A DNA stretch of 64,000 nt, taken from the NCBI RefSeq assembly GCF_041886205.1, contig NZ_CP169029.1; one strand, 5' to 3'. Source of the DNA: Escherichia coli (GTDB taxonomy: Bacteria > Pseudomonadota > Gammaproteobacteria > Enterobacterales > Enterobacteriaceae). The notes under the pieces were generated by a model. That model did not search any database. It saw only the letters and a program-made list of their open reading frames with translations, and was not told the origin of the DNA. Positions 8,312 to 58,505 of the stretch are shown here, piece after piece. The position numbers were made by a program, and so were the translations under genes. Within the stretch, counting starts at the first letter, position 1. The number at the start of each line of letters is the position of its first letter.

Positions 8312-8515
8312 TTAGTAATTCACCTGGGATGGACCATCGCCAGTGGCACGGTCGTTTTTATCCGGCACCGTGGATTGCGTTTGTGTCTCTACCGGTTTGG
8401 TCGGCGGCGGTGCATTTTTATCTGCAGGCGGGAAATAGAGCGGACCTTTCAGACCGCAGCCCGTCAGGCTGAAGAGAGTAAGTAATACAGTGAGTGCCTT
8501 AAACACGTTTTTCAT
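8312..8515 (-). CDS. yifL: Small lipoprotein YifL
   Basis: 67 aa with lipobox LTGC after signal peptide; Pro-rich tail. Confidence 0.85.
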   Translation of the reverse strand: MKNVFKALTVLLTLFSLTGCGLKGPLYFPPADKNAPPPTKPVETQTQSTVPDKNDRATGDGPSQVNY

Positions 8516-8703
8516 TATGGATTGCCTGTAAAGTTCATCGCTTTCTGCTTTCTATCATCGCAGGAGAAGGCGTAAAAGCAAGCGTTTAGCGACTCTTTAT
8601 GAAGTCTGAAAAGTGAGGAAATGCTGCGAGTATAACGCTTACTCGTGGGGATTTATGTTTTGCTGGTAGTTTCGTGATCGGCACCTCGCGCCAGGATGGC
8701 TTT

Positions 8704-10182
8704 ATGCACTATCGCAATGTGGTTTGTTTGTTGTCTTGTTCGTTGTTTTTATCGTCGGCATGGGGATGTCGGCTTGATGAGCCGGAACATAATATTTACC
8801 AGAAACAGGGAAAAGGCGTGGTGTACCTGCGCCCTTATAAAGAAACAAATCTTTCTCTACCTGACGTGAATTACAAGAGTTTGCGTCGTTTACCTAATTT
8901 ATTAATAGACGCAACAACACAAGATGAATGGAATAAAGAACCACCTCTGACTGATCTAACAACTGACAACCTCTATGAGGGCGCACAAGCCTGGTATCCC
9001 CATTACTCCTGGCATAGCGATGGTCGCTATATCCTCTACGCGGGTGAAGTAGTGCAAAATCCTCACGACGCACCACCCGTCGATATCGCCTCATTCAAGG
9101 CATGGGGAGATTTTGCCGCAGATAAACACAGTCTCTATTTTGAAGGCAAGCGCACCGATAACAATGGCGGGGGAAATCGCTTAGATATCAAAACACTGCA
9201 TCAGGTGGAATTCCGGCCTCCCTGGGATCCTGACTTACTGGGGCTGATATTACGTGACGCTAATTTCTTGTATATCAATGGGCATCGCCTCGCAGATCCC
9301 GATAGTTTCCGTGTGCTGGCACAAAAGTCATGGGATCAACGAGGAAAGTTTTCTACCGCGTTTAATCCCTGTGTGGCTATGCCATTTGGCCCATGGGATA
9401 CCCTGGCTCGTACACGGACCAAAATCCTGATCAACGGCGAACAGCTTGATGCCGACCCGGACACTTTTTCCGTCGTGCGCTGGATGCCCGGCTCACTCTT
9501 GACCTGGCGTGATAAAAACGGGCTGCAGCGTAAAGTCCTCGACAAGGAAAATCTGGCGTGGGATGAGGATTTAACAAAGCACTGTCTGGATTTTTCTCTG
9601 CTGGAAAAGAAAGTGTTCTGGCGTCGGGGGCCTGACTGTAAACAGGAAGAATTACCGGGACTCGATCCGGAACAGTTTCACCCCATCAGTGATGCTGTCG
9701 CACAGTATCAGGACTCGCTTTATACCATCATCGAAACAGAGTCTGGTGACCGCAAGCTGGAGATCGTGAAACTTGATGATCCTAATCTTATTATCAACAA
9801 ACGTTTCAACGCCGGGAAACGCCACGGCTATTTACTTACGCGTGCCGAAGGGTGGCCAAACCATTCCGGTTTACACGTGTTTGAATCTGATGGACCGCTG
9901 ATCTTACTGGATAACCGCTCTCCGGATGAACGCGAAGCCCATCTTAATGACCATCCCTTTTTGCGCAGATGGTATGCCCGCGATAACCGCTACGTTTACA
10001 GCTTTGATGGCGCGCAGCTCTGGCGATACCGCACCGCGGATCCGAAACAAGTTCGCTTAATCTGGAAGGAACAACATTCGGGATATGGCTATGGCGTAAA
10101 TTACAAAACGGGATATCTGGACGGAAAAATTACCGATGACGGCGAATTTATTCCTGCCCCGCGCAATGAGGCGACAAAATGA
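8704..10182 (+). CDS. Exported DKNYY-like repeat protein (paralog A), function unknown; start could be 8674 (GTG) or 8704 (ATG)
   Basis: ORF track 502 aa; N-terminal signal/lipoprotein-like segment (…LFLSSAWGC); repeated blocks such as VDIASFKAWGDFAADKHSLYF, RLADPDSF, DADPDTFSVV, ARDNRYVYSFDG; collinear similarity to the downstream ORF. Confidence 0.7.
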   Translation: MHYRNVVCLLSCSLFLSSAWGCRLDEPEHNIYQKQGKGVVYLRPYKETNLSLPDVNYKSLRRLPNLLIDATTQDEWNKEPPLTDLTTDNLYEGAQAWYPHYSWHSDGRYILYAGEVVQNPHDAPPVDIASFKAWGDFAADKHSLYFEGKRTDNNGGGNRLDIKTLHQVEFRPPWDPDLLGLILRDANFLYINGHRLADPDSFRVLAQKSWDQRGKFSTAFNPCVAMPFGPWDTLARTRTKILINGEQLDADPDTFSVVRWMPGSLLTWRDKNGLQRKVLDKENLAWDEDLTKHCLDFSLLEKKVFWRRGPDCKQEELPGLDPEQFHPISDAVAQYQDSLYTIIETESGDRKLEIVKLDDPNLIINKRFNAGKRHGYLLTRAEGWPNHSGLHVFESDGPLILLDNRSPDEREAHLNDHPFLRRWYARDNRYVYSFDGAQLWRYRTADPKQVRLIWKEQHSGYGYGVNYKTGYLDGKITDDGEFIPAPRNEATK

Positions 10183-11501
10183 ATGGTCAAATAATCACTG
10201 TTGCACTCATCCTGTTGGGGCACATATTTCTGACGCCTGCTGTACAGGCCATAGGGTTCGACTATTACAATGATCACGGTGTTATGTCTTACGGTAAAGG
10301 TTATGGGGAGGATGAGAAAATCATTGCCCAATTTCCGAAGATGAACAGAGCCGATTTGCGCCTTGTGACAAATATATCCGGGGAGCGGGAGTTGGTGGAA
10401 GGCTATATACCCACCGATGAAATAAGCATAAAAAATGAGGAATACCACTGGGTGACAGACGGCCGCGTTATTCTCTGGCGTGGCAAAATCGTTAGCAATC
10501 CACCGGGAACACCCACTGTCGATATTGCCAGCTTTCAGGCTATGGGCCGCTTCGCGGTCGATAAATATAGCCTCTATTTTGACGGACAGCGCACCGAAAG
10601 TAATAGCGGCGCGTCACGTGTTGATCTGGCGACACTAAAAGCTATCGAAGGTAACTCTACCACGCTGGTGGATAGTAAAAATCTCTATTTGTCCGGTCGA
10701 CGTCAGGGGAGCAGCAGTAATGTTACTGTATTAGAAAAAAGATGGTGGGGTATTAATCCACGTCTTATGAGTGTAAACAGAAATTTGTATTCCAATGATC
10801 TGCTTATCCGCAGTGGGCAGAATATTTATTTAAATGGCGTTCACCTTACGGCGAATGCAGACTCATTTGAGATAATTCGCTGGAGACCTCATTCACTGCT
10901 GGTTTTTCGCGACAATAAGGGTCTGCATCGTTATCCCTTTGGTCAATTATCAGGCAAGGCAATACCCGTAGATGATGACGTCTCTTTTGAAGTAGGGGAA
11001 AGTCGCGTTCGCTGGCGTAAACAGCTCACGTCCGACCGTCAGTGGAGCAAGTGGATAGACCTACCAGGTATTGAACCTGAACAATTCCATCTGATTACTG
11101 GCAATATTGCGCAGTATAAAGATCGTCTGTATGTAACAAAATTATCGACTTTTGGTGAAGACCAGCTTGAAATAATTCTGCTGGATTCGCCAGACCTGGT
11201 CATTGATAACTCATTTAATGGCGGCAAACAACATGTTTACTTTATCCGCCAATTACGGTCAAAGAGCGTGCAAATTATTCCAACTAACGGCCCGCTAATT
11301 AAAAACGATCGCTTCGCTTATGACGATCGCAATGTTTATACATGGACCGATACAGAGGTAAGGATTACGCCCTCCCCCTGCCCGGCGAAAACACACGTCA
11401 GAGAAGAGAATGTGCGTGAACTTCACAACAGAGACATTATTATTCCGTTGACGGATGAATCATGCCAGAACGCAGCAGACGAGCAAACTTTGAAGCCCTG
11501 A
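10179..11501 (+). CDS. Exported DKNYY-like repeat protein (paralog B), function unknown
   Basis: ORF track 440 aa; signal peptide MNGQIITVALILLGHIFLTPAVQA; start ATG overlaps upstream stop (ATGA); blocks VDIASFQAMGRFAVDKYSLYF, TANADSFEIIRW, DDRNVYTWTD paralogous to the upstream ORF; AT-rich. Confidence 0.7.
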   Translation: MNGQIITVALILLGHIFLTPAVQAIGFDYYNDHGVMSYGKGYGEDEKIIAQFPKMNRADLRLVTNISGERELVEGYIPTDEISIKNEEYHWVTDGRVILWRGKIVSNPPGTPTVDIASFQAMGRFAVDKYSLYFDGQRTESNSGASRVDLATLKAIEGNSTTLVDSKNLYLSGRRQGSSSNVTVLEKRWWGINPRLMSVNRNLYSNDLLIRSGQNIYLNGVHLTANADSFEIIRWRPHSLLVFRDNKGLHRYPFGQLSGKAIPVDDDVSFEVGESRVRWRKQLTSDRQWSKWIDLPGIEPEQFHLITGNIAQYKDRLYVTKLSTFGEDQLEIILLDSPDLVIDNSFNGGKQHVYFIRQLRSKSVQIIPTNGPLIKNDRFAYDDRNVYTWTDTEVRITPSPCPAKTHVREENVRELHNRDIIIPLTDESCQNAADEQTLKP

Positions 11502-11548
11502 CCCCATGCCGCTATACTGCCGCCATCACTTAAAAACAGGATACAACA

Positions 11549-11869
11549 ATGAACGACAGTGAATTTCATCGCCTGGCTGATCAACTCTGGCTGACCATTG
11601 AAGAACGCCTGGACGACTGGGATGGCGACAGCGATATCGACTGCGAAATCAACGGCGGTGTACTGACCATTACCTTTGAAAACGGCAGCAAAATCATTAT
11701 CAACCGCCAGGAACCGCTCCACCAGGTATGGCTGGCAACCAAACAGGGCGGCTACCATTTTGACCTGAAAGGCGATGAGTGGATTTGCGATCGCAGCGGC
11801 GAAACCTTCTGGGATTTGCTGGAACAGGCGGCGACGCAGCAGGCGGGTGAAACAGTCAGTTTCCGCTAA
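11549..11869 (+). CDS. cyaY: Frataxin homolog CyaY (iron-sulfur cluster assembly)
   Basis: 106 aa, [19 protein letters not shown]...; convergent with cyaA. Confidence 0.95.
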
Positions 11870-18987: not shown

Positions 18988-19194
18988 AAAAAAACGCCTG
19001 CTCTTATTACGGAGCAGGCGTTAAAACAGGTCTGTATGACAACAAGTGGGTGCTTCACTCAACGTTGTGTCCATGGTGTCTGATGAGGCATAAGCGACAT
19101 CTGTCAGTGGACGATAAGCACCGTAAACGGCTCTGCGTCATTCCGGAGTTTATGAGGCACTAAGGCGAACATAAGAGATAGAATGAGCATCTAC
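18988..19194 (-). ncRNA. glmZ: GlmZ small RNA (SraJ/RyiA), about 207 nt, with intrinsic terminator
   Basis: Minus-strand sequence starts GTAGATGCTCATTCCATCTCTTATG... and ends in hairpin AACGCCTGCTC...GAGCAGGCGTT plus U7; known location between hemY and aslA. Confidence 0.8.
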
Positions 19195-19618
19195 TCGTTT
19201 ATTATGCCACAGAGAATCGGGAAATAACATCCCTTAACACTTGTTATGAGATAATTCTGTACCCCTCTTTGCTTCCTGAGTAATAACTTCCTGAGTGAAT
19301 ATTTACCCTGAGCTTGATTCTACACATACTCATTATGAATGATAAAATTCATTCAATTAATAACACATATATTAATTGCTGTTAAAACTAAAAACAGCAT
19401 CAATAATCAACGCGATATAATAAACCTGCCTTACATATCAACTGCGCCAGAGGTAGGATTGAAAATGCTCTCCTGATTTTTAAATTCATTTTTGGGATAA
19501 ATAAATAATTTATTTTTATCACTATTATTTATGCAATCATCCTGTCAGGGAGAGGGATCTCAATTATCAATGCTTAATTACGTCATCATTTTGATGACAT
19601 GAAACCGGAGCATTTTGC

Positions 19619-21274
19619 ATGGAATTTTCGTTTTCACCCAAACTTCTTGTTGTTGCTGTCGCCGCCGCTCTTCCTCTCATGGCCAGCGCAGCTGATACCC
19701 CGTCAACTGCCACCGCACGCAAAGGCTTTGCCGGATACGATCACCCAAACCAGTATCTGGTTAAACCGGCGACCACTATTGCCGACAACATGATGCCAGT
19801 AATGCAGCATCCGGCGCAGGATAAAGAAACCCAGCAGAAGCTGGCAGAACTTGAGAAAAAAACCGGTAAGAAGCCCAACGTAGTGATCTTTCTTCTGGAT
19901 GACGTGGGCTGGATGGACGTCGGCTTTAACGGCGGCGGCGTGGCAGTGGGTAACCCTACACCAGATATCGACGCCGTTGCCAGCCAGGGGCTGATTTTAA
20001 CTTCGGCGTATTCTCAACCAAGCTCTTCCCCAACCCGCGCCACCATTCTCACCGGACAATACTCCATCCACCACGGCATTCTGATGCCGCCAATGTACGG
20101 GCAACCGGGCGGGCTGCATGGGTTAACCACGCTGCCGCAGTTGCTGCACGATCAGGGCTACGTCACTCAGGCCATCGGGAAATGGCATATGGGAGAAAAC
20201 AAAGAGTCGCAGCCGCAGAACGTTGGCTTTGATGATTTCCGTGGCTTTAACTCGGTGTCTGATATGTACACCGAATGGCGCGACGTTCACGTAAACCCGG
20301 AAGTGGCCCTGAGTCCGGACCGTTCTGAATACATCAAGCAATTACCGTTCAGCAAAGATGACGTTCATGCAGTGCGCGGCGGCGAACAACAGGCCATTGC
20401 CGACATTACGCCGAAATATATGGAAGATCTGGATCAACGCTGGATGGACTATGGCGTTAAGTTCCTCGACAAGATGGCGAAGAGCGATAAGCCTTTCTTC
20501 CTCTATTACGGCACTCGCGGCTGTCACTTCGATAACTACCCGAACGCCAAATATGCGGGTAGCTCTCCGGCGCGCACCTCTTACGGCGACTGCATGGTGG
20601 AGATGAACGATGTGTTCGCTAATCTGTATAAAACACTGGAGAAAAACGGTCAGCTTGATAACACGCTGATCGTCTTTACCTCCGATAACGGACCGGAAGC
20701 CGAAGTACCGCCGCACGGACGCACACCGTTCCGTGGTGCGAAAGGTTCGACCTGGGAAGGCGGCGTTCGCGTACCGACTTTCGTTTACTGGAAAGGGATG
20801 ATCCAACCGCGTAAATCTGACGGTATTGTCGATCTGGCAGATCTCTTCCCTACCGCGCTGGATCTGGCAGGGCATCCTGGAGCGAAAGTGGCGAATTTAG
20901 TGCCGAAAACCACCTTTATCGATGGTGTGGACCAGACATCCTTCTTCCTGGGAACAAATGGTCAGTCTAACCGTAAGGCCGAGCACTACTTCCTCAACGG
21001 TAAACTCGCTGCTGTGCGTATGGATGAGTTCAAGTATCACGTCCTGATTCAGCAACCTTACGCTTATACCCAGAGCGGATATCAGGGTGGATTCACCGGC
21101 ACAGTAATGCAAACGGCGGGATCGTCGGTGTTTAACCTGTACACCGATCCGCAGGAAAGCGACTCTATCGGCGTGCGCCATATTCCGATGGGTGTACCGC
21201 TACAGACCGAAATGCACGCATATATGGAGATCCTGAAAAAATATCCACCACGCGCGCAGATTAAATCTGATTAA
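19619..21274 (+). CDS. aslA: Arylsulfatase AslA (Ser-type sulfatase, S-x-P-x-R motif), periplasmic
   Basis: 551 aa; signal peptide; sulfatase signature [13 protein letters not shown] around nt 20027-20045. Confidence 0.9.
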
Positions 21275-55663: not shown

Positions 55664-57184
55664 ATGTCACTGTCAATTGTTCATACCCGCGCAGCCCTGG
55701 GAGTAAATGCGCCCCCGATCACTGTTGAGGTACATATCAGTAAAGGTCTACCCGGCTTAACGATGGTGGGCTTACCAGAAACAACTGTAAAAGAAGCTCG
55801 CGATCGCGTGCGCAGCGCCATTATCAATAGCGGATATGAATATCCGGCGAAAAAAATCACCATCAACCTTGCTCCAGCCGATCTGCCAAAAGAAGGGGGA
55901 CGATATGATTTACCTATCGCCATTGCGTTGCTGGCGGCCTCAGAACAGCTTACAGCCAATAAGTTAGATGAATATGAATTAGTCGGAGAACTGGCTCTTA
56001 CAGGCGCTCTGCGTGGCGTTCCCGGTGCAATCTCCAGTGCAACTGAAGCTCTTAAGTCGGGCAGAAAAATTATCGTCGCGAAAGATAACGAAGATGAAGT
56101 GGGGCTAATTAACGGTGAAGGATGCCTGATAGCCGATCATCTGCAGGCTGTCTGTGCGTTTCTGGAAGGTAAGAACACTCTCGAACGCCCGAAACCAACT
56201 GATGCAGTATCCCGGGCGCTACAACATGATCTCAGTGATGTTGTCGGTCAGGAGCAAGGAAAACGAGGACTGGAAATTACCGCCGCTGGTGGGCACAACC
56301 TTTTACTGATTGGACCGCCGGGAACAGGTAAAACAATGCTCGCCAGCCGTATTAATGGCCTTTTGCCAGATTTAAGCAATGAAGAGGCACTGGAGAGCGC
56401 TGCGATATTAAGTCTGGTAAATGCTGAATCAGTACAAAAACAATGGCGGCAGCGCCCGTTCCGCTCACCGCATCACAGTGCGTCGTTAACTGCGATGGTG
56501 GGCGGTGGTGCAATTCCAGGGCCAGGTGAAATTTCGTTGGCGCATAACGGCGTGCTTTTTCTTGATGAGCTACCTGAATTTGAACGGCGTACACTGGATG
56601 CCTTGCGAGAGCCGATTGAATCCGGGCAGATCCATCTTTCACGCACACGAGCAAAAATAACCTATCCAGCCCGTTTCCAGCTTGTCGCGGCGATGAATCC
56701 CAGCCCTACCGGACATTATCAGGGAAACCATAACCGCTGCACGCCAGAACAGACATTACGTTATCTCAACCGGCTCTCGGGGCCCTTTCTCGACCGCTTC
56801 GATCTCTCACTGGAGATCCCATTACCACCCCCCGGCATTTTGAGTAAAACGGTAGTGCCGGGAGAAAGCAGCGCCACCGTTAAACAACGCGTAATGGCCG
56901 CCAGAGAGCGCCAATTTAAGCGGCAGAATAAACTGAATGCCTGGCTGGATAGTCCGGAAATACGCCAATTCTGCAAACTTGAGAGCGAAGATGCGATGTG
57001 GTTGGAAGGAACACTGATCCATCTGGGGTTATCGATTCGTGCCTGGCAGCGGTTATTGAAAGTTGCACGAACCATTGCTGATATTGATCAGTCTGACATT
57101 ATCACACGTCAGCATTTGCAGGAGGCAGTTAGCTATCGTGCGATTGACCGTTTGCTCATCCATCTGCAAAAACTACTGACATAA
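55664..57184 (+). CDS. yifB: Mg-chelatase-like AAA+ ATPase YifB (ComM family)
   Basis: MSLSIVHTRAALGVNAPPITVEVHISKGLPGL; Walker A GPPGTGKT; 506 aa. Confidence 0.9.
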   Translation: MSLSIVHTRAALGVNAPPITVEVHISKGLPGLTMVGLPETTVKEARDRVRSAIINSGYEYPAKKITINLAPADLPKEGGRYDLPIAIALLAASEQLTANKLDEYELVGELALTGALRGVPGAISSATEALKSGRKIIVAKDNEDEVGLINGEGCLIADHLQAVCAFLEGKNTLERPKPTDAVSRALQHDLSDVVGQEQGKRGLEITAAGGHNLLLIGPPGTGKTMLASRINGLLPDLSNEEALESAAILSLVNAESVQKQWRQRPFRSPHHSASLTAMVGGGAIPGPGEISLAHNGVLFLDELPEFERRTLDALREPIESGQIHLSRTRAKITYPARFQLVAAMNPSPTGHYQGNHNRCTPEQTLRYLNRLSGPFLDRFDLSLEIPLPPPGILSKTVVPGESSATVKQRVMAARERQFKRQNKLNAWLDSPEIRQFCKLESEDAMWLEGTLIHLGLSIRAWQRLLKVARTIADIDQSDIITRQHLQEAVSYRAIDRLLIHLQKLLT

Positions 57185-57665: not shown

Positions 57666-58505
57666 GTGGATACGGAATTGTTAAAAACTTTCCTGGAAGT
57701 TAGCCGAACGCGTCACTTTGGTCGAGCGGCTGAATCGCTCTATCTGACCCAGTCAGCCGTGAGCTTTCGAATCAGACAACTGGAAAATCAACTGGGTGTG
57801 AATCTTTTCACCCGCCACAGAAACAATATCCGTTTAACCGCTGCTGGTGAAAAACTACTGCCTTATGCAGAAACGCTCATGAGCACCTGGCAGGCCGCCC
57901 GCAAGGAGGTGGCGCATACCTCACGACATAACGAGTTTTCTATCGGTGCCAGCGCCTCATTGTGGGAATGTATGCTTAATCAGTGGCTGGGACGTTTGTA
58001 TCAAAATCAGGATGCCCATACAGGCTTACAGTTCGAAGCGCGAATTGCCCAACGGCAGTCTCTGGTAAAACAGCTGCATGAACGCCAGCTTGATCTTCTT
58101 ATTACCACTGAAGCGCCCAAAATGGACGAATTTAGTAGTCAGTTGCTGGGATATTTCACTTTAGCGCTTTATACCAGTGCCCCTTCCAAACTAAAGGGAG
58201 ATCTTAACTATCTGCGACTGGAGTGGGGGCCAGATTTTCAACAGCATGAGGCAGGTTTGATCTGTGCTGACGAAGTTCCCATTCTGACAACCAGTTCTGC
58301 TGAACTGGCACAGCAACAGATTGCGATGCTTAATGGTTGCACCTGGCTACCCGTCAGCTGGGCGCGTAAAAAAGGCGGCCTGCATACTGTTGTTGATAGC
58401 ACAACACTTTCACGACCGCTTTATGCCATATGGCTGCAAAATAGCGATAAAAATGCGTTGATTCGCGATCTATTGAAAATTAACGTGCTGGATGAAGTGT
58501 ATTAA
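57666..58505 (+). CDS. hdfR: LysR-type transcriptional regulator HdfR
   Basis: 279 aa; N-terminal LysR HTH; divergent from maoP. Confidence 0.85.

Follow-up and report, generated by a model that had tools for sequence, protein, structure and literature searches.

A moderately AT-rich DKNYY-like gene between lptM and cyaY of Escherichia coli is probably a long-resident paralogue of a variable array

The proteins of the Pfam DKNYY family (PF13644) are uncharacterised repeat proteins, and RefSeq and UniProt give that name to many members of a protein family encoded between lptM and cyaY. The broader DKNYY family is typical of low-GC taxa. For H-NS, the motif tCGATAAATT has been described (Lang 2007, PMC2094087). 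In our calibration sample of 113 CFT073 genes with ChIP-seq values (PMC9765446), all seven genes below 44% GC were H-NS-bound, as were 2 of the 11 genes at 44–48% GC, namely c0022, which lies between genes of 40% and 43% GC, and leuO. Tandem paralogues of varying copy number make up orphan type VI secretion system (T6SS) immunity arrays, such as those of Tli1/DUF3304 lipoproteins, DUF3304 being a Tli1-type domain (PMC13133936), and the AID arrays of Bacteroides (cited in PMC12469244). Here we analyse a pair of genes in a 64,000-nucleotide stretch of an E. coli genome (contig NZ_CP169029.1; hereafter the window) and compare them with these systems and with the flexible gene pool of E. coli.

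The locus is bordered on the left by lptM (yifL; 8315..8518, minus strand), whose translation matches LptM and which is annotated by RefSeq in (near-)identical strains. Its right border is cyaY (11549..11869, plus strand), identified from its ORF and from RefSeq annotation and coding for a frataxin-like iron donor. Both borders are conserved. Two genes, here called gene A and gene B, lie between them on the plus strand. Gene A (8674..10182, 49.2% GC), the first paralogue, is a 502-aa ORF whose product is DKNYY-like and probably exported; the start equivalent to that of RefSeq, at position 8704, gives 492 aa. It is separated from lptM by a divergent spacer (8519..8673) of 43.2% GC. Gene B (10179..11501) encodes a 440-aa DKNYY-like protein that is probably Sec-exported and all-beta. 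The gene A stop codon and the gene B start codon overlap in an ATGA (10179..10182, plus strand) with a GAGG 8 nt upstream, an arrangement that suggests translational coupling and a single A–B operon. A sigma-70-like match found by consensus scan, TTGAAG-17-TATACT (11490..11518, plus strand), runs across the stop codon of gene B; it is a candidate cyaY promoter.

The products of genes A and B are 36% identical over 325 aa (E = 2e-61) and, judged by their sequences, are paralogous, uncharacterised DKNYY-like proteins. Their matches to Pfam DKNYY are sub-threshold (E = 0.019 and 0.082 for gene B, E = 5.2 for gene A), most precomputed DKNYY matches among homologues are graded 'faint' or 'weak', and an NCBIfam profile search of the proteins gave no match; RefSeq names gene A 'DKNYY family protein' or 'hypothetical protein'. 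The N-terminus of the gene B product, MNGQIITVALILLGHIFLTPAVQA/IG, resembles a signal peptide, consistent with probable export through Sec. In the AF2 model (pLDDT 82.8) residues 1–23 are disordered and the structure is all beta. The family is small, with 130 representatives among 1.84 billion proteins, ranges from 420 to 670 aa in length and turned up in just a few Enterobacterales species, being absent from most of the Enterobacteriaceae species representatives scanned. Family members adjoin cyaY at one locus and ytfE at a second.

A sequence-only reading of the window had put the stretch 10680-10870 at roughly 40% GC by eye, against roughly 50–55% in the neighbouring dapF, cyaA and hem genes. 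Both estimates proved accurate: exact computation gives 40.3% for this stretch and 45.9% for 10180-11520, and the neighbours measure 52.2–56.0% (dapF 55.3%, cyaA 52.2%, hemC 56.0%, hemD 53.2%; cyaY has 53.6%). The gene B ORF has a GC content of 45.6% (GC1 0.528, GC2 0.385, GC3 0.454) and, as had been claimed, is AT-rich relative to its flanks, with the lowest GC and the lowest GC3s of the 41 long genes in the window. Against the 39 other long window ORFs, its GC of 45.6% compares with a mean of 53.5% (z = -3.51) and its GC3s of 0.437 with a mean of 0.571 (z = -2.39). In a sliding scan of the window, equally GC-poor 1323-bp segments amount to only 0.45% of all and are located at gene B, at the window's left end (1-141) and in the hemY–aslA spacer. 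Gene B contains two troughs of 38.5–41% GC, at about 10630-10980 and 11030-11380 and each of about 350 bp; 200-bp segments across the first (10629..10978, plus strand), which includes the stretch quoted above, have 39.5–42.5% GC and those across the second (11029..11378, plus strand) 38.5–45%. The compositional shift is nevertheless moderate rather than extreme. The third codon position contributes 57% of the GC deficit, the first 35% and the second 8%. The first-position share arises because the protein is rich in Ile, Asn, Asp, Ser and Tyr and poor in Ala, Leu and Met.

Codon usage gave a different picture. With K-12 ribosomal-protein genes as reference, gene B has a CAI of 0.331 (3 of the 39 other long ORFs are lower) and an Nc of 55.4 (one of the 39 is higher). 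Near-identical codon statistics were found for ORF 55634-57184 (GC3s 0.445, CAI 0.300) and ORF 57666-58505 (GC3s 0.440, CAI 0.327), which from their size and position we take to be the core genes comM and hdfR, respectively, and for hemD (CAI 0.318, Nc 56.7). The CAI and Nc of gene B lie inside this low-expression tail of core genes. Its dinucleotide signature is native (delta* 68.7 versus a window mean of 68.1, with 37.5% of sampled segments equally or more deviant). Measured against the spread of the core genes, the departure that had been proposed is seen in total GC (z = -3.5) but not in codon usage, where comM, hdfR and hemD match gene B.

Full-length gene B is present in 1407 of 5426 complete E. 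coli genomes (~26%), on chromosomes only, and the intact genes are missing from ~74%. In E. coli the locus occurs with two, three or five genes or with an IS insertion. Apart from the scar described below, its forms are the two genes by themselves, DUF3304 plus two and DUF3304 plus four; an IS3 element is present there in some strains. Arrays of paralogues fill this position in at least six genera, the order lptM–array–cyaY being found in Citrobacter sp. FP75, K. spallanzanii, Escherichia sp. E4385 and MOD1-EC7003, E. albertii, Pseudocitrobacter vendiensis, Phytobacter diazotrophicus and Salmonella Infantis. Orthologues of gene A at this site in other genera are 49–75% identical. A neighbour-joining tree places A-type and B-type genes in separate clades that each span several genera, which argues that the A/B duplication is old. 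Judged from the sequences, divergence of the array is not clock-like: gene A of E. albertii is 73% identical to that of E. coli, the Citrobacter gene is 75% identical, and between alleles of gene A in E. coli dS is as high as 0.47. Since E. albertii is thus as distant as Citrobacter and dS within E. coli is this high, we conclude that allelic exchange takes place at the locus. The GC content of the arrays tracks that of the host (Klebsiella 52.6–56.1%, flanks 57–59%; Citrobacter 48.8–50.7%, flanks 54–58%; Escherichia 45.6–49.6%), staying 3–8 GC points below the flanks. Because gene A and the orthologous arrays of three other genomes share this offset, it is a property of the family and the locus and not noise.

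To what remains in genomes without the intact genes, alignments and breakpoint mapping gave a uniform answer. K-12 JM109, O157:H7, ETEC4075 and WCHEC000837 all lack the segment 8861..11427 (2,567 bp), so that 187 nt of gene A now abut 74 nt of gene B, the 2.57 kb between them being gone, and the junction is identical in the four strains. The lptM/gene A spacer is kept in all four scar genomes, aligning almost base for base, and the sigma-70-like match is intact and 100% conserved. None of the four aligned genomes has a clean empty site; all are scars. Since these strains carry the same A-5'/B-3' junction, the two-gene state is ancestral to the scar. The direction of change is thereby corrected: what K-12 and O157 show is not an empty site but the outcome of a 2.57-kb deletion, which left the promoter-like site of cyaY in place. 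PGAP treats the remnant as a 'DKNYY family protein' pseudogene that is frameshifted and incomplete. The K-12 ORF yzcX is annotated across the scar and part of cyaY; no relevant literature turned up for either DKNYY or yzcX.

Within E. coli, gene B shows a dS of 0.05–0.07, compared with 0.07–0.25 for flanking core genes, and a dN of 0.02–0.03, giving a dN/dS of 0.38–0.49 compared with 0–0.08 for the flanks. The dN/dS between gene B and its Citrobacter counterpart is 0.13. This low value, together with the raised ratio within E. coli, shows that gene B does code for a protein, although one under weak constraint.

Altogether, these results make it probable that gene B is an old second paralogue of a variable array and that its AT-richness comes from weak constraint and residue composition, possibly with a very old foreign origin. 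An array of DKNYY-like, probably exported beta-proteins would have resided between lptM and cyaY since before the split of Escherichia, Salmonella, Citrobacter and Klebsiella, undergoing recurrent duplication, fusion, pseudogenisation and deletion. In a weakly constrained and presumably poorly expressed gene B, codon selection would be weak and the universal GC-to-AT mutation bias could lower GC3, while an amino-acid make-up high in AT-coded residues would add to the AT-richness. Part of the composition may also be a leftover of a very old foreign origin. The causal role given here to low expression and GC-to-AT mutation bias is one that we infer. As a counter-point, total GC remains an outlier (z = -3.5), and the tiny, patchy family would equally suit lateral spread long ago. 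Accessory genes of lower GC at variable loci are textbook cases, so that the finding carries little weight beyond annotation hygiene; annotations of both genes, and of the pseudogene remnant in K-12, already exist in RefSeq.

The sequence-only reading had regarded both genes as inserted and gene B as consistent with horizontal origin. A recent insertion of the two into the lptM–cyaY spacer from a foreign, AT-richer donor could account for their absence as intact genes from ~74% of complete genomes, for a gene B GC below that of the flanks and for the IS3 element or extra DUF3304 gene of some strains. It is, however, most improbable given that genomes 'lacking' the genes hold a scar of both ends with one junction in four aligned strains, that synteny of the locus extends over six or more genera, that the dS of gene B is no higher than that of the flanks and that its dinucleotide signature is native. 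Flanking repeats, tRNA and integrase are also missing: the array borders have no tRNA (the nearest is 11 kb off) and no direct repeats other than short chance or paralogue-derived ones, and the ORF list of the window contains no integrase, transposase or IS ORF at the locus. Plasmid and phage origins were considered and rejected, since the only high-identity matches in the plasmid collection are megabase-sized records, evidently mis-filed chromosomes, and the match in the phage collection is a Salmonella chromosomal contig with the same lptM–cyaY locus. With a scar in place of an empty site, arrays in at least six genera, GC that tracks the host, dS at or below that of the flanks and no marks of mobility, the description of gene B as 'inserted' is not supported. 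Horizontal origin survives in part: accessory status (1407/5426), GC below the flanks and a patchy family allow an ancient foreign source, whereas the scar, cross-genus synteny, dS and dinucleotides speak against a recent one. Among the usual marks of a genomic island, deviating base composition and sporadic distribution were found; deviating codon usage or signature, mobility hallmarks and a clean empty site were not. That there is nothing to explain, the composition lying within normal core gene-to-gene variation, would agree with the GC3s, CAI and Nc that gene B shares with comM, hdfR and hemD, with its average dinucleotide signature and with about one third of the GC deficit stemming from amino-acid composition. 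We consider this distinctly unlikely, because gene B ranks last of 41 genes in both GC and GC3 (GC z of -3.5), the same shortfall against the flanks is seen in gene A and in the orthologous arrays of three further genomes and, in the sampled part of the CFT073 data (PMC9765446), the 9 of 113 genes below 45.6% GC are all marked CFT-specific or undetermined.

A doubtful but possible alternative, compatible with the old-paralogue reading and not exclusive of it, is that gene B is an ancient xenogeneic gene from a low-GC donor, silenced by H-NS/StpA on the AT troughs and thereby freed of codon selection, which would leave amelioration incomplete. It could draw on the 45.6% GC of gene B with its two ~350-bp troughs of 38.5–41%, on the patchy distribution of the family and on the H-NS motif, which matches gene B at 10558 (1 mismatch, ~70 nt upstream of the first trough), 10639 (2 mismatches, inside the first trough) and 11139 (1 mismatch, inside the second). 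Gene B thus holds two of the nine 1-mismatch matches in the window, and its three matches at ≤2 mismatches compare with ~1.3 expected from window density; window-wide, however, matches at ≤2 mismatches are not enriched (62 observed versus 56.5 expected from shuffled sequence). Occupancy in the sampled CFT073 genes climbs steeply with falling GC (Spearman -0.58; PMC9765446), but both of the bound genes among the 11 at 44–48% GC adjoin far more AT-rich DNA, whereas the neighbours of gene B have 49% and 54% GC and its dinucleotide signature is native. On this calibration with the sampled CFT073 genes, the chance of H-NS binding at the GC content of gene B would be roughly one in five. A GC content of ~45%, at which about one-fifth of the sampled CFT073 genes are bound, should not in itself be read as evidence of H-NS silencing. 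The CFT073 orthologues of the two genes are C_RS22330 and C_RS22335, at 4,494,307-4,497,092 of that genome.

As to function, the lptM–cyaY array might serve as a 'defence shelf' on the chromosome, holding periplasmic proteins that evolve under diversifying selection, with the DKNYY-like paralogues forming a new orphan immunity or decoy family whose targets may be toxins that act in the periplasm, be they T6SS-delivered or bacteriocins. If true, this would explain copy-number variation, divergent alleles, raised dN/dS and frequent loss. We regard it as quite improbable. A DUF3304 (Tli1-type) gene heads the same locus in many E. coli strains and is absent from this window; that gene scores E = 8e-4 and 19 bits against the Tli1a model, for a cut-off of 110. 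No effector, VgrG, PAAR, Hcp or other T6SS gene lies beside family members in any context examined, and no secretion genes surround the distant homologues L029, L030 and L032. A link to iron handling, suggested by adjacency to cyaY and ytfE, is a weaker alternative. In Salmonella, free iron falls when STM3944 is overexpressed (PMC8264917). We considered STM3944 as a DKNYY-like gene and rejected it: its putative match is the cyaY-proximal Salmonella ORF, and because this ORF codes for a 129-aa DUF3021 membrane protein, absent from our window, the phenotype probably does not belong to the DKNYY-like gene. A small, fast-evolving, probably exported family fixed at one slot in several enterobacterial genera is a cheap target for functional study.

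The array differs from orphan T6SS immunity arrays in that no DUF3304 gene is present in the window and its proteins are large (420–670 aa); it resembles them in its tandem paralogues of varying copy number and in proteins that are probably periplasmic and fast-evolving. Compared by composition alone, gene B at 45.6% GC is unlike the H-NS-bound genes of the CFT073 sample, which mostly have 31–43% GC. It shares with H-NS-silenced genes (the CFT073-specific c0078–c0080 and c0021–c0023; bgl, leuO) a GC content below the mean, accessory status and AT-rich internal tracts with near-matches to the H-NS motif. As in Pfam DKNYY proteins, the weak matches cover a region with a D-K-x-S-L-Y-F motif and the predicted structure is all beta. 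Unlike typical members of the E. coli flexible gene pool and its regions of genome plasticity, the locus is without mobility genes, tRNA or repeats, shows a deletion scar where an 'empty' state would be expected, keeps its synteny from genus to genus and has a native dinucleotide signature. With that pool it has in common a presence/absence polymorphism (26%), GC below that of the core, weak codon bias, structural variants, IS insertion and a site between conserved core genes.

The window is a piece of E. coli chromosome, 100% identical to strain LHM10-1 over the region tested. Its minus strand carries uvrD-yigB-xerC-yigA-dapF-lptM in this order, followed on the plus strand by the ORFs gene A (8674–10182) and gene B (10179–11501); downstream of gene B lie cyaY, cyaA and hemCDXY. 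The sequence-only reading had described gene B as AT-rich relative to its core neighbours, with about 40% GC at 10680–10870. Computed values agree: this stretch has 40.3% GC and gene B 45.6% (GC3 0.454), compared to 55.3% for dapF, 53.6% for cyaY, 52.2% for cyaA and 56.0% for hemC. Against the 39 other long ORFs of the window, gene B is lowest in both GC (z = -3.5) and GC3s (0.437, z = -2.4), and 0.45% of 1323-bp windows slid across the sequence are as GC-poor. The shift is nevertheless moderate. Three of the window's core genes, hemD and two ORFs presumed from their size and position to be comM and hdfR, have codon statistics nearly identical to those of gene B (CAI 0.331, with K-12 ribosomal-protein genes as reference; Nc 55.4), and its dinucleotide delta* of 68.7 is exactly average (mean 68.1). 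Codon position 3 contributes 57% of the GC deficit and position 1 35%, the latter because the protein is high in Ile, Asn, Asp, Ser and Tyr and low in Ala, Leu and Met.

Genes A and B encode paralogues (36% identity over 325 residues) and are probably one operon, judging from an ATGA stop/start overlap preceded by GAGG. Both proteins have hydrophobic N-termini; an AVQA at the end of this segment in the gene B protein suggests Sec export, and inspection found no canonical lipobox in either protein. RefSeq names them 'DKNYY family protein' or 'hypothetical protein', no NCBIfam model covers them, and Pfam DKNYY hits stayed below threshold, with E = 0.019 for gene B and 5.2 for gene A. Searching 1.84 billion proteins with a profile built on 20 members retrieved only 130 representatives, and all named members are from Enterobacterales.

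Full-length gene B is present in 1407 of 5426 complete E. coli genomes, in every case on the chromosome. Four aligned strains without it (K-12 JM109, O157:H7, ETEC4075 and WCHEC000837) retain the lptM–gene A spacer together with the 5'-terminal 187 nt of gene A, which are fused to the final 74 nt of gene B; the junction is identical in all four. The deleted segment corresponds to 8861–11427 (2,567 bp), and PGAP labels the remnant a DKNYY pseudogene. A promoter-like TTGAAG-17-TATACT at 11490–11518, overlapping the gene B stop codon and 31 nt before cyaY, is kept in this scar. In MG1655, yzcX (b3808; positions 851–1336 of locus L013) runs antisense to cyaY and spans the scar and part of that gene, so its annotation is probably an artefact of the scar. 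Other E. coli forms of the locus carry a DUF3304 gene with both genes, or IS3, a DUF3304 gene and four paralogues.

Outside E. coli, the lptM–cyaY interval, or the position right beside lptM, is occupied by one to four arrayed paralogues in Citrobacter sp. FP75, Klebsiella spallanzanii, Escherichia sp. E4385 and MOD1-EC7003, E. albertii, Pseudocitrobacter vendiensis, Phytobacter diazotrophicus and Salmonella Infantis. Some contain a single ORF of 590–710 aa that combines an A-type body with a B-type C-terminus. A neighbour-joining tree separates the A-type from the B-type genes, each as a clade of several genera, and array GC tracks the host genome, a few points under the flanks. In the four aligned strains the site without gene B is not empty, and the earlier description of the pair as inserted is not supported.

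Two DKNYY-like paralogues also lie between cycA and ytfE (E. whittamii locus L024, 2154–5215; also loci L022, L023 and L025). At both family loci the neighbouring gene encodes an iron donor to Fe-S clusters (cyaY at one, ytfE/RIC at the other), which may reflect chance or hint at function. Salmonella has an extra gene, not found in the window, for a 129-aa DUF3021 membrane protein between the DKNYY-like gene and cyaY (5374–5763 in L038, 10695–11084 in L037), which is presumably STM3944. Overexpression of STM3944 lowers free iron (PMC8264917). On two Salmonella plasmids, a DUF3021 gene is found together with a C-terminal fragment of the family.

Nei–Gojobori rates for the window against three other E. 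coli strains, one of them B2, gave gene B a dS of 0.05–0.07, not above flanking core genes (0.07–0.25), a dN of 0.02–0.03 and a dN/dS of 0.38–0.49, compared to 0–0.08 for the flanks. Against Citrobacter its dN/dS is 0.13, which indicates a genuine protein-coding gene under weak constraint. Gene A and its B2 allele (4405–5874 of L012) share 87% amino acid identity with a dS of 0.47 (flanks 0.07–0.26), suggesting long-separated allelic lineages or conversion between paralogues; inter-genus distances are not clock-like either, and allelic exchange therefore also occurs at the locus. Within the window the pair has no tRNA, integrase or IS at its borders and no direct repeats flanking it, and plasmid and phage collections yielded no genuine copy of it.

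Of the horizontal origin proposed for gene B, the below-flank GC and accessory distribution stand; a deletion scar in place of an empty site, a native dinucleotide signature and the lack of mobility hallmarks speak against a recent insertion. The family itself may have been acquired from a foreign source long ago. Silencing by H-NS had also been suggested, and CFT073, where the orthologues are C_RS22330 and C_RS22335, has been profiled by H-NS ChIP-seq (PMC9765446). Among 113 genes in the first 134 kb of CFT073, used as a calibration in place of the orthologues themselves, H-NS bound 7/7 genes below 44% GC, 2/11 at 44–48%, 1/20 at 48–52% and 1/75 above 52%, and both bound 44–48% genes adjoin far more AT-rich DNA. 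Gene B itself has two internal 350-bp troughs of 38.5–41% GC and two of the window's nine one-mismatch matches to the Lang 2007 motif. Silencing is therefore possible though rather unlikely, and composition alone does not predict it. We favor, with moderate confidence, gene B being a long-resident, weakly constrained, probably poorly expressed accessory gene drifting AT-ward. Its third positions would drift to an AT-biased mutational equilibrium, and its protein composition would add to the AT-richness.

Far more AT-rich than gene B is 1–620 (500-bp windows at 33–37% GC), where a plus-strand 126-aa ORF (238–618; 32% GC, GC3 0.29; no NCBIfam match) adjoins ORF 661–1626, which we take to be corA. 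The 126-aa ORF is a better candidate than gene B for a foreign, H-NS-bound gene. Another of the window's three lowest-GC segments is the 38% GC spacer at 19000–19750, from hemY to a 551-aa ORF at 19619 that is the aslA counterpart in the CFT073 annotation.

In many E. coli, a DUF3304 gene lies between lptM and gene A (2066–2620 in L003, 1687–2241 in L004, 263–814 in L014). L014, a 4-kb contig (JAIJJM010000270.1) from a 'Collinsella sp.' metagenome-assembled genome, encodes DUF3304, gene A and gene B with 94–99% amino acid identity to their E. coli counterparts and is a contaminant from E. coli. The Tli1 lipoproteins, which confer immunity to the Tle1 phospholipases of the T6SS, have DUF3304 as their domain (PMC13133936), and the locus gene matches NCBIfam Tli1a weakly (E = 8e-4). 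Because this Tli1-type gene heads the locus in other strains, the array might, speculatively, be an orphan-immunity or defence array. No effector gene lies beside the DUF3304 gene in these three loci, and the gene neighbourhoods examined lend the idea no support.

Overall the finding is ordinary: an accessory gene of reduced GC at a variable locus of the chromosome is a familiar pattern, and both genes are already annotated. Compared to genomic islands, the pair departs in most respects, namely signature, mobility hallmarks and empty site.
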